DNA of 28,526 nucleotides. Origin: a bacterium (Candidatus Torokbacteria) CG_4_10_14_0_2_um_filter_35_8. GTDB taxonomy: Bacteria; Patescibacteriota; GCA-2792135. This document shows, one piece after another, positions 936-28,448 of this stretch (the stretch's first letter is position 1; every line of letters begins with the position of its first letter). The notes under the pieces are model-generated. The model made no database searches, was not told where the DNA came from, and saw nothing but the letters and a program-made list of their open reading frames with translations. A program made the translations under genes and the position numbers. The DNA is taken from the NCBI GenBank assembly GCA_002792135.1, contig PFNU01000141.1, positions 1 through 28,526 on the forward strand, in the 5' to 3' direction.

Positions 936-987
936 AGGTTCCTACAAGCTACAAACTAATTCATTTTGCATTTTAAATTTTGAATTT

Positions 988-1803
988 TTAATTTATCTCA
1001 CTAGCCCCTGGTCCCTGATACCTAATTATTCCAATAACCGACAACATTCTTCTTTTAGTTGGCTTTCTTTTATCAGAAATCTCTCTAGTATAGTAGCAAG
1101 AGGGGTATTTGTCATGCTCACAGCAAGTACAAATTTTCGAGTCCTGAATATTTTCAGGTAAAACTCCAACTCCAGTAAGTTGAATCTTAATAGCAGAGAT
1201 AATATCTAAAAACTTTCTGTTTTTCAGACCAAAAAACTTATTATTATGAACTTTTATAACCTCTTTTTCAAATACATCTGAAAATTTCTTTAACCTTTCT
1301 GGAACTTCTGTAAGATCATAGCAACAACTTCGAATACCCGGACCCAATAGAACTTGTAAATCTTTAGAGTCAGAATCAAAGTTTCTTTGCATAACTTTCA
1401 CTAGCTTTTGACAAACTAAACTTAAAACTCCTGGCCAACCAGCATGTGCAAGACCAACCACTTTCTTCTTAGGATCATAAAAGAAAACAGGAAAACAGTC
1501 TGCGGTTCCGATAATAAGAAAAGTGTTTTTTGTAGAAGTTACCATCCCATCTATATTGGCAAGAGAGGAATTACTATCAAAAGCACCCTTTCCTCTATCT
1601 TTTTCTGTAACTAAAGAAACTTTACTTCCATGAGCTAAACCTGCAAAAACTGTGTTTTCTAATCTAATTCCTAATCTGGTAAAAAACTTATGACGATTCT
1701 TTATAACTTTCTCCTTTAGTACATCATCTAAAAAAACAAGCGTGCCATAACTTAAGTCAGAACATCCACAGACAATATTCTCTTTTCCGAATTTAAATTT
1801 CAT
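988..1803 (-). CDS. pgeF: YfiH/PgeF family purine nucleoside phosphorylase / peptidoglycan editing factor (laccase-domain protein)
   Basis: LAHGS, TADCFPV, AHAGWPG, LGPGIRSCCY and CTCC motifs are typical of the YfiH/DUF152 family. Confidence 0.85.
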   Translation of the reverse strand: MKFKFGKENIVCGCSDLSYGTLVFLDDVLKEKVIKNRHKFFTRLGIRLENTVFAGLAHGSKVSLVTEKDRGKGAFDSNSSLANIDGMVTSTKNTFLIIGTADCFPVFFYDPKKKVVGLAHAGWPGVLSLVCQKLVKVMQRNFDSDSKDLQVLLGPGIRSCCYDLTEVPERLKKFSDVFEKEVIKVHNNKFFGLKNRKFLDIISAIKIQLTGVGVLPENIQDSKICTCCEHDKYPSCYYTREISDKRKPTKRRMLSVIGIIRYQGPGASEIN

Positions 1804-1821
1804 TTTTAATAAATTTTCTTA

Positions 1822-1877
1822 GTCAGCAAACTTGACTTTAGTCGAACTCATATCGGACTAAAGTCCAACTTGCTGGC
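1822..1877. repeat. 56-bp REP-like hairpin with GACTAAAGTC cores
   Basis: gtcagcaaacttgactttagtcga...tcggactaaagtccaacttgctggc is an imperfect inverted repeat between murJ and pgeF. Confidence 0.65.
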
Positions 1878-1967
1878 GGGCTTAGACGTTACAGTACAAT
1901 ATCTCTACTCTACAATAACTACAATAACATTCTAAACTCCTACTCCCTATTACCTACAACCTAATCC

Positions 1968-3554
1968 CTAATTCCCATTCTTAAAATCCCCTATCTTCAC
2001 AAACCTTCTAATAAACCTATTTAAAAAAGCAACTTCTCCACATCTCAATGCAAAAGCAAGAGTAATATAAGAAAATGCAAAAACTAGACCTGCGCCTAAA
2101 GCCTGTATTAATATTCCAATTCCGGTTGTCATATCAACTTTTGGTGCAATAGCATAAAGAGAACCATACGCGAAAATCCCTGAAAGCGTGGATGCCAGCA
2201 TAATTCTAACAGCGGAATTAATAATTGTGGCATCATTAAGATTACCAACTCTTGTTCTTAAAATCGCGAGTAACAAAAACATATTAACAAAAGATGAAAT
2301 GGAAAATGCTAGAGCAAGCCCTCCTACTCCCAACACTCGTGATAAATATAAAGCAAGAAAGATATTGCAAAATACAGAAACAACAGAGATTTTAACAGGA
2401 GTTTTTGTATCCTGCATAGCATAAAAAGAACGTGCAAGAAGGGGAACAAGACTTTGCGCAAAAAGACTTAGGGTAAAAAAGCCTAGTGCAGATGCAGTAC
2501 GACGAGTATCTTGCCAGTCAAAATGTCCTGCACCTAAAATAATCCTTACAATTTGTGCTCTCAAAATAAGCATAAGAACACTTATTGGTACGACTAAGAA
2601 AAGAATCTGTCTAAATGTCTTAGAAAAAGTATTGACAAATTCCTTTGTTCTTTTTAAGGAAAAGGTCTCAGACAAAACTGGAAAAGAGGCAATAGCAAAA
2701 GAAATCCCAAAAAGACCCAAAGGTATACTTTGTAAATTATTGGCAAAATTATAAACGGAAACTGCACCACCAGAAAGTGTAGAGCCAATAATAGTACTGA
2801 TAGTCAAATTAATCTGATGCACAGCAAGTCCTAGACTTCTTGGGATCATAAGCCTTCCTATCTTCCTTACCTTCTTATTTTTAATATCAAAAATAAAACT
2901 ATATCTAAAACCAAGATGGACAGTTGCGATAAGTTGAACCACCATATGCAGAAAAGCACCCAAGACCACTCCCAAGGCCAGACCCAAGTTTCCAAAAGTG
3001 GGAACAAACACAAGCACTCCAAAAATAATCCCTAAATTATAAAAAATAGGAGCGATACTATATGCTAAGAATTTCTTAAAAGAATTAAGAATTGCTCCTG
3101 CAACGTTTGATATTCCAAAAAGAATCGGTGACAAAAGCATAATTCTTGCAAGATCCACTGTAAGCTCTCTTTTTTCAAGGGAAAATCCTGGGGTAATCAG
3201 CTTGATAAAAAATGGCATAAAAATAAAAAGAACAAAGGAAGATACTAGGAGAACAAAAATTATGATATTTAAAATAGAGTTTGCAACCTTGAAAGCCTCT
3301 TTTATTCTTTTGTGAGAAATCAAGTCGGTGAAGATTGGAATAAAGGCTGCAGATAGTGCTCCAAGTACTAAAAGATTAAAAATAAGATCAGGAATTCTAA
3401 ATGCTGCAAAATAACTATCAAGAATATCCCCTGCTCCAAAGTGAGAAGCAAAGATCCTATCTCTTACCATACCTAAAAAACGACTCGCAAAGGACATTAC
3501 CGCAAGAAGTAAGGCTGATTTGGTAATTGAAAAAGCTTTATTGTTCTTAGTCAC
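1968..3554 (-). CDS. murJ: Lipid II flippase MurJ (MviN)
   Basis: SRFLGMVRD, FGAG, AFRIPDLIFNLLVLGALSAAFIP, LQSIPLGLFG and LLARSFYAMQDTKTPV; multi-TM, 528 aa; GTG start. Confidence 0.96.
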   Translation of the reverse strand: MTKNNKAFSITKSALLLAVMSFASRFLGMVRDRIFASHFGAGDILDSYFAAFRIPDLIFNLLVLGALSAAFIPIFTDLISHKRIKEAFKVANSILNIIIFVLLVSSFVLFIFMPFFIKLITPGFSLEKRELTVDLARIMLLSPILFGISNVAGAILNSFKKFLAYSIAPIFYNLGIIFGVLVFVPTFGNLGLALGVVLGAFLHMVVQLIATVHLGFRYSFIFDIKNKKVRKIGRLMIPRSLGLAVHQINLTISTIIGSTLSGGAVSVYNFANNLQSIPLGLFGISFAIASFPVLSETFSLKRTKEFVNTFSKTFRQILFLVVPISVLMLILRAQIVRIILGAGHFDWQDTRRTASALGFFTLSLFAQSLVPLLARSFYAMQDTKTPVKISVVSVFCNIFLALYLSRVLGVGGLALAFSISSFVNMFLLLAILRTRVGNLNDATIINSAVRIMLASTLSGIFAYGSLYAIAPKVDMTTGIGILIQALGAGLVFAFSYITLAFALRCGEVAFLNRFIRRFVKIGDFKNGN

Positions 3555-27024: not shown

Positions 27025-27149
27025 TGTCATTCCCGCGAGGGACGTTAAACGTCCCGAAAGCGGGAATCCATACCAGAGTCTATCACAATATTAAAGGCAT
27101 GGATTCCTGCTGGAGTTTACCCCGTAATCAGTACGGGGCAGGAATGACA
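27025..27149. repeat. TGTCATTCC(C/T)G-terminated MITE-like long hairpin, copy 2
   Basis: Right half nearly identical to 18520-18568. Left half is GTCATTCCCGCGA[gggacgttaaacgtccc]GAAAGCGGGAATCCA. Confidence 0.82.
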
Positions 27150-27265
27150 ACTTTGTCTTTGTACAGAAGCTCGCATTTAATTCGTTCCTCTCATCCCGTT
27201 CAACGGGACTTAGTGTGGAATTCGAAACTAATTCGTATTCGGCCGTATAGCTCTTAATTCTAAAT

Positions 27266-27302
27266 CCTAGTTGCCTAGTAACCCAGTAGCCCCAGTAGCC
27301 TA
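27266..27302. repeat. CCTAGTAG/CCCAGTAG tandem arm starting at the fba stop codon
   Basis: cctagttgcctagtaacccagtagccccagtagccta; the final cta is the TAG stop. Confidence 0.85.
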
Positions 27303-28172
27303 TACTTTCCCTCCGCTTCCAAACAACTCTATCTTACTTTCTACAATAGCTCTTACAGCATCAATGCAAGGTGCTAAGATTTTGCGAGGGTCCAAAAGAT
27401 GAGGGTTTTCTTCTAATATTTCCTTCAGCATATTAGTAAAAGCAAATTGTGTCTCTGTATCAATATTACATTCTGTAATTCCTTCTTTAATTACATTTCT
27501 AATTTGATCGGGAGCGATACCAGATGCTCCATGGAGAACTAAAGGTATAGAAACTATTTTTTTGATCTTCCTTAACCTCTCCAAGTCAAGCTCTAATCCT
27601 GGAACATCCATACCATGAGCATTACCTATAGATATAGCAAGACTATCAACTTTGGTCTCACTAACAAATTTCTCTACCTCATCAGGCTTTGTCATCAATT
27701 CTCCAATCTCTTCGAGGGTTACATTATTTCCTAGATCATAATCTTCGGCTTTTTTTACTCTTCCTAATTCTCCTTGAACACAAGCACCTTTCTTGTGCGC
27801 ATACTCTACTACCTCCTTCGTCATTCTAATGTTTTCTTCCAAAGGATAGCTAGATGCATCTATCATAATAGATGAAAACCCATTATTAATACATTCTACA
27901 ACAGTATGAAAACTCTTTCCATGATCTAGGTGAAGTGCAACAGGTACATCTCCTGCCTCATCAGCAGCAATAGTTTTTACAATACTAATAATAGGCCTAA
28001 GTCCCGCATAGAAAATTGTATTCTCACTAACCTGAATAACTACAGGGGATCTTTCTAATAGAGCAGCTCTTATGATTCCTAAAGTTACTTCTAGATTATA
28101 AGTATTGAAAGCACCTATAGCATAATGCCCTTTTTGTGCTTTTTTAATTAAATCGAGAGCAGAGGCAAGCAT
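27300..28172 (-). CDS. fba: Class II fructose-bisphosphate aldolase
   Basis: YAIGAFN, HLDHG, MIDAS, GELG, GNAHG and LVLHGASG (Zn ligands). Confidence 0.95.
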   Translation of the reverse strand: MLASALDLIKKAQKGHYAIGAFNTYNLEVTLGIIRAALLERSPVVIQVSENTIFYAGLRPIISIVKTIAADEAGDVPVALHLDHGKSFHTVVECINNGFSSIMIDASSYPLEENIRMTKEVVEYAHKKGACVQGELGRVKKAEDYDLGNNVTLEEIGELMTKPDEVEKFVSETKVDSLAISIGNAHGMDVPGLELDLERLRKIKKIVSIPLVLHGASGIAPDQIRNVIKEGITECNIDTETQFAFTNMLKEILEENPHLLDPRKILAPCIDAVRAIVESKIELFGSGGKV

Positions 28173-28277
28173 GATGTTAGAGTTTAGGGAATAGAAAATT
28201 CAAAATTTAAAATGCAAAATTCAAAATAAGAATTTGGAATATAGAATTTAGAGTTATGAATCAGGAATCGTGAATCA

Positions 28278-28448
28278 GGAATTTCCACCCAAGGCGGATC
28301 AGCCTAGAGCTGAAGGAACTTTGGAACTAACAGTTACGCTTAAAGTTTTCTGTTTGTTTTAGGAATGAGACACAATGTCCCTCTCCTTATCAAGGAGAGG
28401 CTAGGTGAGGTCATCTCCCCTCCTTTTAAAGGAGAGGCTAGGTGAGGT
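28278..28448. repeat. Composite dispersed repeat, copy 2, with a duplicated CCCTCTCCTT..AAGGAGAGGCTAGGTGAGGT unit
   Basis: Matches 6421-6562. The terminal unit is repeated at 28379-28411 and 28417-28448. Confidence 0.75.

Follow-up and report, generated by a model that had tools for sequence, protein, structure and literature searches.

The 28,526-nt stretch of DNA analysed here (the window) is contig C104 of an 889,721-bp metagenome-assembled genome (MAG; genome label G000) comprising 148 contigs, with 34% GC and 85% completeness, which was obtained from groundwater/aquifer metagenomes and is Patescibacteria-like in character. Named homologues of the window genes belong to the Patescibacteria group. 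The minus strand encodes all 21 large genes, and their ends carry short tandem arrays of 7- or 8-nt units (heptads and octads), referred to here as arms, which are the subject of this work. Pfam analysis returned Cu-oxidase_4/pgeF, MurJ, Bac_transf, RNase H, RecJ, acetate kinase, PduL, PfkB, two iPGM, enolase, PGK, GAPDH and class II FBA, in agreement with the gene names given in an earlier reading of this sequence (the initial annotation), together with two 23S_rRNA_IVP genes. The sole Rfam match was the RNase P RNA at 10739–11201. Coding density is about 73% and the median spacer 115 nt, as estimated with a simple open reading frame (ORF) caller.

Repeat arms at the gene ends of the window

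The initial annotation proposed that repeat arms begin at stop codons and reappear, inverted, just before start codons. All of the arms that it named exist, at or within a few bases of where it had placed them, and are listed below (TRF, Tandem Repeats Finder).

963–994, minus strand: A-rich heptad module of about 4.5 units, with an AAAATGC unit near its inner end, overlapping the pgeF TAA stop (988–990); TRF period 7
1929–1970, minus strand: six TAGG-type heptads, the first TAG being the murJ stop (offset 0; 1968)
3619–3637, plus strand: GAAT-type heptads, 65 nt upstream of the murJ start, GAAT reading away from the gene
3885–3911, minus strand: GAAT-type heptads, reading ATTC on the plus strand and lying 85 nt downstream of the stop of a DUF4012 gene
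6401–6426, plus strand: GAATTAG heptads lying 7 nt upstream of the start (6393) of the DUF4012 gene
9014–9039, plus strand: CGAATCA heptads upstream of a glycosyltransferase start (8938)
9158–9178, minus strand: TAGGAAGT octads, the first TAG being the Bac_transf stop (9176); the orthologue in relative L116 stops with TGA
11590–11648, minus strand: composite arm, with an A-rich module (11617–11648) over the rnhA TAA stop (11634) and GAATCAT heptads (from 11590) inward of the module
14221–14251, plus strand: A-rich module whose sense strand is the U-rich recJ leader, overlapping the called TTG start of recJ
15131–15208, minus strand: CTACTAGG octads across the ackA stop (15190, which is the third TAG), then GAAT-type heptads
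17211–17241, plus strand: A-rich module that is U-rich in the mRNA and lies 10 nt from the pduL start
17368–17404, minus strand: CTACTAGG octads, the first TAG being the pfkB stop (17402); orthologues end in TAA at the same residue ± 2
18405–18437, plus strand: A-rich module, 4 nt from the pfkB start
20239–20265, minus strand: pyrimidine-type arm, reading CCAGTAGCC in the mRNA, that follows the IVP gene at 20280–20663, pairing with 20705–20733 (duplex −54.6 kcal/mol)
20705–20733, minus strand: CTACTAGG octads from the gpmI-2 TAG stop (20731), forming the 5′ arm of a hairpin with an IVP gene in its loop
22314–22341, minus strand: pyrimidine-type arm after the IVP gene at 22337–22738, pairing with 22780–22817 (duplex −33.7 kcal/mol)
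22780–22817, minus strand: CTACTAGG octads, 24 nt after the enolase stop, forming the 5′ arm of the second IVP-holding hairpin
25758–25774, plus strand: GAAT-type heptads, 6 nt from the pgk start
25838–25870, minus strand: A-rich heptads over the gap TAA stop (25864)
26898–26928, plus strand: degenerate A-rich module upstream of the gap start (26889)
27261–27302, minus strand: CTACTGGG/CTACTAGG octads from the fba TAG stop (27300)
28195–28282, plus strand: composite arm upstream of the fba start, with an A-rich module (28195–28227), then AGAATTT heptads, then GAATCAG heptads

For murJ, Bac_transf, pfkB, gpmI-2 and fba, the TAG stop is exactly where the CTACTAGG/TAGG-type arrays on the sense strand, described in the initial annotation as CTA-periodic, begin; at ackA the array extends 16 nt into the ORF. 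A-rich arms overlap the TAA stops of pgeF, rnhA and gap, and the reverse complements of such arrays lie 4–22 nt upstream of pduL, pfkB and fba, the recJ copy overlapping the called start. The GAAT/ATTC arrays at 3619, 3885, 6401, 9014, 11590 and 25758 obey the same orientation rule at all six sites. The module at 963–994 is 94% complementary to 28190–28220, at the other end of the window. The window arrays were also recovered in independent assemblies of four other groundwater samples, and thus are not an assembly artefact.

Census of arrays across the genome

Arrays were detected by TRF across the whole MAG, with gene ends taken from the simple ORF caller. Period 7 dominated, with 440 arrays of which 393 are intergenic, followed by period 8 (161, of which 111 intergenic); other periods were far rarer between genes. 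About 200 consensus unit types were found, the commonest being AAAATTC, AAAAATT, AATTAGG, AAATTAG, AATCACG and ACTAGGCT. Copy number is not geometrically distributed, having its mode at 4.5 units (about 32 nt) and collapsing above 5. Most families are unable to form G-quadruplexes (four or more G3–4 tracts), runs of G3 occurring in only some TAGGG-type arrays.

The A-rich arms share a module of 32 nt with a fixed internal order, in which two or three AAATTM units are followed by AAAATGC and then by one more unit, with the outer end towards the gene. The module recurs at more than 40 loci and often has a TAGG module next to it on the inward side. At four loci (G000 C11:4402, C45:1490, C103:1216 and C138:2203) a longer composite was observed, in which the A-rich and TAGG modules are joined to a conserved core of about 30 nt (…AAAATGGAGAGTAGTAAATATCTTTTAGCTT); this composite looks like a larger mosaic dispersed element.

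Array edges concentrate from −10 to +4 nt relative to stops and from +5 to +9 nt relative to starts. Arrays within 10 nt of a gene end number 102, compared with 83.8 ± 7.1 under random placement, a modest 1.2-fold enrichment. Arrays are flush with starts (94) about as often as with stops (90), and GAATTTT-type arrays favour starts (20 versus 3 at stops).

With respect to the assembly itself, 135 of the 492 intergenic period-7/8 array rows (472 once overlaps are merged) adjoin a contig end, and Logan contigs of other samples are interrupted at these arrays too, as at 17239–17241, 20703–20733 and 24159. The repeats are a main cause of the fragmented assembly.

Orientation of arrays relative to genes

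Orientation was scored on arrays lying no more than 30 nt from a gene end, taking the strand that runs 5′ to 3′ away from the gene. TAGG-type arrays run away from the gene in 51 cases versus 7 for CCTA-type, A-rich in 52 versus 23 for T-rich, and GAAT in 17 versus 9 for ATTC, giving 120:39 in total, with similar ratios at both kinds of gene end and in all three spacer types (co-directional, convergent, divergent). The ORF caller hides about ten reverse-oriented, ATG-containing arrays at 5′ ends; once these are restored, the ratio becomes 135:50. In a split-half test, family orientation taken from odd-numbered contigs predicted that on even-numbered contigs by 56:13 (p = 1.7 × 10⁻⁷), so that the two directions are not equally frequent genome-wide, as the initial annotation had anticipated. 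Its wording that the arms are oriented to transcription is not borne out by the data: their orientation is non-random relative to genes, but the rule is dyad-symmetric and holds alike for divergent and for convergent spacers.

A plain compositional rule (A > T) was rejected, as it gave only 117:59 in the MAG and 12:10 in the first samples of relatives; since this rule is weaker, orientation is family-specific. Neither GC nor AT skew is seen in leaders and trailers free of arrays, which indicates that the polarity belongs to the arrays and not to untranslated regions generally.

Where one spacer holds an inverted pair of the same family, the A-rich/TAGG arm comes first in 16 of 16 cases, and among 108 flush arrays a partner in the same spacer is inverted in 21 and direct in 4. 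An array X followed by its reverse complement reads X first on both strands, and a pair that fills a spacer therefore shows X running away from either gene. Being symmetric, such a pair presents X on the sense strand after a stop and on the antisense strand before a start, irrespective of how the flanking genes are oriented. By this logic, the polarity follows from inverted-pair geometry, not from transcription-guided targeting.

Compact hairpins in syntenic relatives

The twenty genomes classed as relatives have only their phylum in common with the MAG. A GAPDH search of genome contigs returned no match closer than 57%, and a search of JGI metagenome contigs for close relatives gave one match only, at 24% identity. 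Other genomes of the phylum do carry compact inverted heptamer pairs, and in five genome samples the A-rich arm came first in 27 of 27 pairs. A universal A-rich-arm-first order was nevertheless rejected, as only 4 of 10 pairs show it in genome G008 and it also fails in G020, and this order is a property of family or lineage, not a law.

Three contigs (L116–L118), reached via PfkB homologues of 52–53% identity, share with the window the order TIM, FBA, GAPDH, PGK, enolase, iPGM, iPGM and PfkB, followed by NUDIX, RecJ, RNase H, RNase P, Bac_transf and glycosyltransferases, with an ADP-forming acetyl-CoA synthetase (ACS) standing in for pduL–ackA. Their summed spacers amount to about 1.6 kb, compared with about 3.8 kb in the window, and several consist of two complementary heptamer arrays and nothing else. 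The spacer between the second iPGM gene (iPGM-b) and PfkB, which in L116 measures 84 nt (9701–9784), holds GAATCTG-type units and then their complement, and that between PfkB and ACS holds AAATGAC-type units followed by GTCATTT-type units. Single hairpins occupy these two spacers, as well as the spacer between iPGM-a and iPGM-b and that between adjacent glycosyltransferase genes, in L116/L118. They span from the stop, or at most 16 nt after it, to 0–13 nt before the next start, with z-scores of −3 to −8 versus shuffles. The clearest examples have their first paired base at the stop and their final one 0–3 nt before the start.

The stem between iPGM-b and PfkB has one heptad fewer per arm in L118 than in L116, along with one compensatory pair, and the arms between PfkB and ACS have diverged beyond alignment between the two relatives, both of which still fold. 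Each junction of the relatives carries a distinct, locus-specific repeat family. At about 53% identity the relatives are too distant to provide empty sites, and no target-site duplication was noticed in the spacers read.

The same comparison revealed further features of the cluster. At window positions 15190–17200, pduL and ackA occupy the place that in L116 (10951–13041) belongs to the single ACS gene, and the acetate/ATP step is exchanged at a conserved position of the glycolytic cluster. The two iPGM genes form an old tandem duplication, which the syntenic relatives share (window 18575–22738; L116:6385–9700).

Stop codons supplied by arrays

Genes with a TAGG-periodic array starting no more than 12 nt after the stop end in TAG in 23 of 27 cases, versus 28% in the background (Fisher p = 3.6 × 10⁻¹⁰). 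In 14 of the 20 overlapping cases the stop is the first TAG of the array, where one third would be expected, and array starts are far sparser per position at 4–14 nt after the stop. TGA and TAA stops with a TAGG array 1–2 nt further on also occur, which points to the end of the coding sequence, not TAG itself, as the anchor. A unit of 7–8 nt shifts the frame with each copy, so that an ORF entering an array stops within three units; the TAG enrichment at TAGG arrays is partly built in.

The C-termini of orthologues agree with those of the window proteins within 2 amino acids, and the stop codons differ: FBA, iPGM-a, PfkB and Bac_transf end in TAG in the window and in TGA or TAA in the relatives. 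In L116 and L118 the FBA gene stops at a TGA that belongs to a TGAATGC array, of which it is the first unit. In each lineage it is the array that provides the stop. The initial annotation had proposed TAG enrichment at CTAG arms and the stop codons of orthologues as checks, and neither of its two refuting conditions, equal orientations and TAG at background frequency, holds.

IVP genes and filled hairpin loops

The PF05635 gene (23S_rRNA_IVP, a four-helix-bundle family) is present in 11 copies in the 0.89-Mb genome, on contigs C9, C36, C53, C61, C63, C66, C85, C104 (20280–20663 and 22337–22738), C125 and C138. Of the nine copies that could be tested, seven are flanked by complementary arrays, whose duplexes range from −23 to −55 kcal/mol and which represent five different families; in the window these are the arm pairs 22780–22817/22314–22341 and 20705–20733/20239–20265. 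The presence of IVP genes between complementary arrays indicates that hairpin loops become filled, pushing the arms hundreds of bases apart, and the separated arms remain attached to the neighbouring stop and start. The IVP gene seems to enter existing hairpin loops rather than to bring its own arms. In other spacers, palindromes resembling MITEs (miniature transposable elements with inverted repeats) and mini-hairpins lie between the arms.

Two further features were noted in the iPGM region. Each iPGM copy of the window has gained a downstream IVP gene, producing a 2075-nt repeat unit of 74–83% identity. The gpmI-1 ORF (18575–20215) has a 17-residue C-terminal extension that is absent from both syntenic orthologues and reaches a MITE-like 48-nt inverted repeat (18457–18568); the original gpmI-1 stop seems to have been displaced by insertion of this repeat.

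Leaders, translation signals and candidate factors

A tetramer resembling a Shine-Dalgarno (SD) site occurs between −20 and −4 in only 7% of genes, although the 16S tail keeps CCUCC (its 3′ end is the canonical GGATCACCTCCTT, on C25 near position 12150). More SD-like strings (AGGA, GGAG) lie immediately after stops (11.6%) than ahead of starts. SD sites are not in use in this organism. Leaders that bear arrays are U- or C-rich and G-poor. TANNNT starting at −12 from the start codon was found in 66 of 594 genes versus about 28 at neighbouring positions, a spacing that would be expected of a −10 box and suggests leaderless transcripts for a subset of genes.

Sigma-70 promoters and intrinsic terminators were rejected as the content of the arrays, neither being enriched over shuffles in consensus scans. 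The terminator scan gave 16 hits versus 12.2 ± 3.9 in shuffles, none of them at arrays, whose stems are AU-rich and lack a U tract. No Rho, CsrA or RNase III was found in this genome, which is 85% complete, so that ideas needing them gain no support. One gene for a 68-amino-acid cold-shock-domain (CSD) protein and a multi-domain S1 gene are present, as are three short Y1_Tnp fragments; no intact transposase is linked to the arrays.

Discussion

We consider it probable that the arms are the two halves of genome-wide, hairpin-forming heptamer/octamer repeat modules, a Patescibacteria counterpart of the short tandemly repeated repetitive (STRR) sequences of cyanobacteria and of the Xanthomonas GGGAATC repeats. 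The basic unit would be a pair of complementary arrays of about 4–5 units each, forming one imperfect stem-loop that, as in the relatives, would take up the entire spacer, beginning at the stop codon and ending a few bases short of the next start. With units of 7–8 nt, such an array carries TAA, TAG or TGA in all three frames; abutting the last sense codon, its first unit would become the stop, probably replacing the one used by orthologues. Loops would then be filled by nested 23S-IVS-protein genes, as at the seven IVP genes with flanking arrays, and presumably elsewhere by MITE-like palindromes and mini-hairpins. This filling would separate the arms, most of which are now solo. The 32-nt A-rich module and the TAGG, CTACTAGG and GAAT families may have spread or been homogenised across spacers, and replication slippage, together with template switching within the hairpin or gene conversion, may maintain the arrays, altering both arms together. 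Arrays would be tolerated only flush against coding sequence, and would be transcribed as intercistronic stem-loops. Judged from the sequences, such stop-to-start stems could couple translation, or could punctuate or stabilise polycistronic mRNA.

Several observations weigh against this interpretation. A same-spacer partner is recognisable for only about 20% of the flush arrays in the MAG, and both spacer ends carry arrays in only seven spacers. The complementarity of spacer ends (RNAduplex) stands at −11.3 kcal/mol versus −10.7 kcal/mol in permuted pairs (p = 0.19), apart from a tail of about 2%; general complementarity of the two spacer ends is thereby rejected as a rule in the MAG. With most arms solo and no excess complementarity, a split-hairpin history has to be inferred for most of them. 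The suggestion in the initial annotation of transcript structures at cistron boundaries fits the stop-to-start hairpins of the relatives and is partly supported by them; in the MAG, partners are few and spacer ends are no more complementary than permuted ones. Inverted-pair geometry also leaves the purine/A-rich-first order unexplained, and this order is reversed in six of ten G008 pairs and in two G020 pairs. Over more than 40 loci the A-rich module varies too little for its copies to be independent relics, which would call for a further, putative step of module spreading or homogenisation. Finally, Logan contigs of the four other groundwater samples show no 7- or 8-nt indels over 8900–28526, but they break at arrays and are therefore uninformative in this respect.

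Four other explanations were weighed. In one, the repeats act as a device in the transcript: the terminating ribosome melts the base of the stem and so frees the U-rich, SD-less leader of the next gene (coupling by unmasking), with the purine arm providing stops in all frames. This is possible, if unlikely. It accords with the position of the first paired base at or beside the stop and of the last 0–3 nt before the start in several spacers of the relatives, with SD-like tetramers in only 7% of genes despite the retained CCUCC, with array edges peaking 5–9 nt before starts, and with the preference of GAATTTT-type arrays for starts (20 versus 3). Similar oriented heptamers lie just before starts that lack a ribosome-binding site (RBS) in Beggiatoaceae and Nostoc (PMC4679880; bioRxiv 10.1101/2022.06.06.494920). 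However, most arms of the MAG are solo and the two ends of one spacer often belong to different families; the orientation ratio is unchanged in divergent and convergent spacers, where coupling is impossible; and arm order is reversed in G008 and G020, with rapid turnover of arm sequences between L116 and L118. Footprints of mobile elements inserted at stops or gene junctions (MITE-like, or moved by Y1 or REP-associated tyrosine transposase (RAYT)-type enzymes), with the arrays as their terminal inverted repeats, are decidedly improbable. Such elements would account for the near-identical A-rich module with its fixed internal order at more than 40 loci, the longer composites on C11, C45, C103 and C138, the abrupt peak of TAGG arrays that start precisely at the stop (14 of 27), the match between stop codon type and array family, and the three Y1_Tnp fragments. 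But starts are abutted as often as stops (94 versus 90), no common flanking target is present, no target-site duplication was noticed in the spacers read, and about 200 unit types coexist, with a different, locus-specific family at each junction of the relatives. The IVP genes sit between five arm families, which means that the arms are not the ends of one element, and the arrays have no linked intact transposase. The stop-codon-targeting elements offered as one option in the initial annotation find poor support, given the like numbers at starts and stops, the many unit types, the locus-specific families of the relatives and the partly built-in TAG enrichment.

Cold-shock proteins cover 6–7 nt of T/U-rich single strand, and tandem sites for a single-strand-binding protein with a footprint of about 7 nt (the 68-amino-acid CSD protein or S1), coating U-rich leaders, would suit a period of strictly 7 (less commonly 8) and a length capped near 4.5 units in a genome that has one CSD gene and a multi-domain S1 gene. 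Coverage of T/U-rich single strands by cold-shock proteins has also been proposed in PMC4679880. This explanation is nonetheless very improbable, given that dozens of unrelated units, G-rich ones included, share the same architecture, and that the same protein would have no affinity for the complementary A-rich/purine arrays after stops. It is scarcely credible that the arrays are ordinary slippage microsatellites whose polarity is due to chance or to ORF calling. Stops in every frame of the arrays do force the ORF caller to end ORFs there, about ten reverse-oriented 5′-end arrays are hidden by it, and flush enrichment over random placement is only 1.2-fold. Yet orientation stands at 135:50 after correction, with the split-half test at p = 1.7 × 10⁻⁷, all 16 pairs share one configuration, and gene boundaries are confirmed by the ends of Pfam domains and orthologues. 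The copy-number distribution, which is not geometric but peaks at 4.5 with a sharp drop above 5, and the fixed order of the A-rich module also bear out the initial annotation in dismissing random microsatellites.

The interpretation as hairpin-forming repeat modules is best set against repeats already described. Rehm et al. (2015, PLoS One; PMC4692102) reported G-rich heptamers in Xanthomonas (GGGAATC) and Nostoc PCC 7120 (GGGGAYT), the G-rich strand lying no more than 50 bp after stops on the sense strand and no more than 50 bp before starts on the antisense strand, with stops overlapped, four units preferred, 70 or more convergent pairs and function unexplained. The MAG arrays share with these heptamers the period of 7, the strongly intergenic location, the polarity rule, the overlap with stops, the number of units (about four, with a mode of 4.5 in the MAG) and the inverted pairs (16 same-family pairs in the MAG). 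They differ in being mostly AT-rich or CTAG-based and without G-quadruplexes, and in the coexistence of dozens of families in a sub-megabase genome of 34% GC; moreover, their arms are modular and concatenated, with nested insertions in the loops, and the hairpins of the relatives fill the spacer from stop to start. The STRR sequences of heterocystous cyanobacteria likewise comprise several tandem-heptamer families in spacers and coexist with very small nested dispersed repeats, though in a different host phylum and with other unit sequences. They also occur inside the RNase P RNA gene, and their arrays can be much longer than those of the MAG. To our knowledge, the original description of STRR sequences gave no polarity rule relative to stop and start codons.

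Leader repeats offer a second comparison. TAACTGA direct repeats of marine Beggiatoaceae, cyanobacteria and Bacteroidetes are oriented towards RBS-less start codons (MacGregor 2015; PMC4679880), lie upstream of starts in 132 of 170 cases and hardly ever form inverted pairs, and TTTTGAA heptamers precede start codons in Nostoc (bioRxiv 10.1101/2022.06.06.494920). Like them, the arrays of the MAG are oriented heptamers that end one to a few nucleotides before RBS-less starts, and TTTTGAA is also the commonest leader unit in the MAG; unlike these single-unit repeats, the MAG arrays occur equally at stops (90 versus 94), belong to many families and form hairpin arms. The repetitive extragenic palindromic (REP) sequences of enterobacteria and pseudomonads, with bacterial interspersed mosaic elements (BIMEs) and REPINs and accompanied by RAYT transposases, are also short, dispersed extragenic repeats, in many cases paired as inverted doublets with a hairpin fold, in mosaic combinations, often just after stops and inside operon transcripts. 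However, a REP is itself a palindrome of 20–40 nt with a conserved head, whereas the MAG arrays are non-palindromic direct heptads with no linked intact RAYT. The intervening sequences (IVSs) of 23S rRNA that carry an IVP/S23p ORF (PF05635) resemble the filled loops in having a long stem with a four-helix-bundle gene in its loop, the stems in the MAG being heptad arrays. True IVSs are excised by RNase III. The MAG copies lie between protein-coding genes and not in rRNA, in a genome where RNase III was not found at 85% completeness. Our literature search found no paper on heptamer repeats in Patescibacteria.

The repeats described here are AT-rich, fall into multiple families, hold nested insertions and belong to a known, unexplained kind of repeat: over-representation of intergenic heptamers has been noted since the 1990s and never explained. 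The relatives, with their stop-to-start hairpins, and the MAG, where the same junctions are inflated by nested insertions, together give a clear view of the architecture, from which the published rule of sense after stop and antisense before start emerges as the geometry of inverted pairs. Through such repeats a sub-megabase genome of the candidate phyla radiation (CPR), normally streamlined, falls to about 73% coding, and its housekeeping genes obtain their stop codons from repeats without change to the C-terminus. Annotators should expect ORF ends and contig breaks at heptad arrays.

A more far-reaching proposal is that, in SD-less Patescibacteria, heptad stems are a general device joining each stop to the next start, such that upstream termination would unmask a U-rich landing pad downstream whatever the loop contains. 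As a general statement this is quite unlikely. If true, these stems would be a structural substitute for SD-based operon translation and would explain how spacers can be invaded without breakage of the operon. Translation coupling by stems without SD sites would then be a new principle of operon expression.

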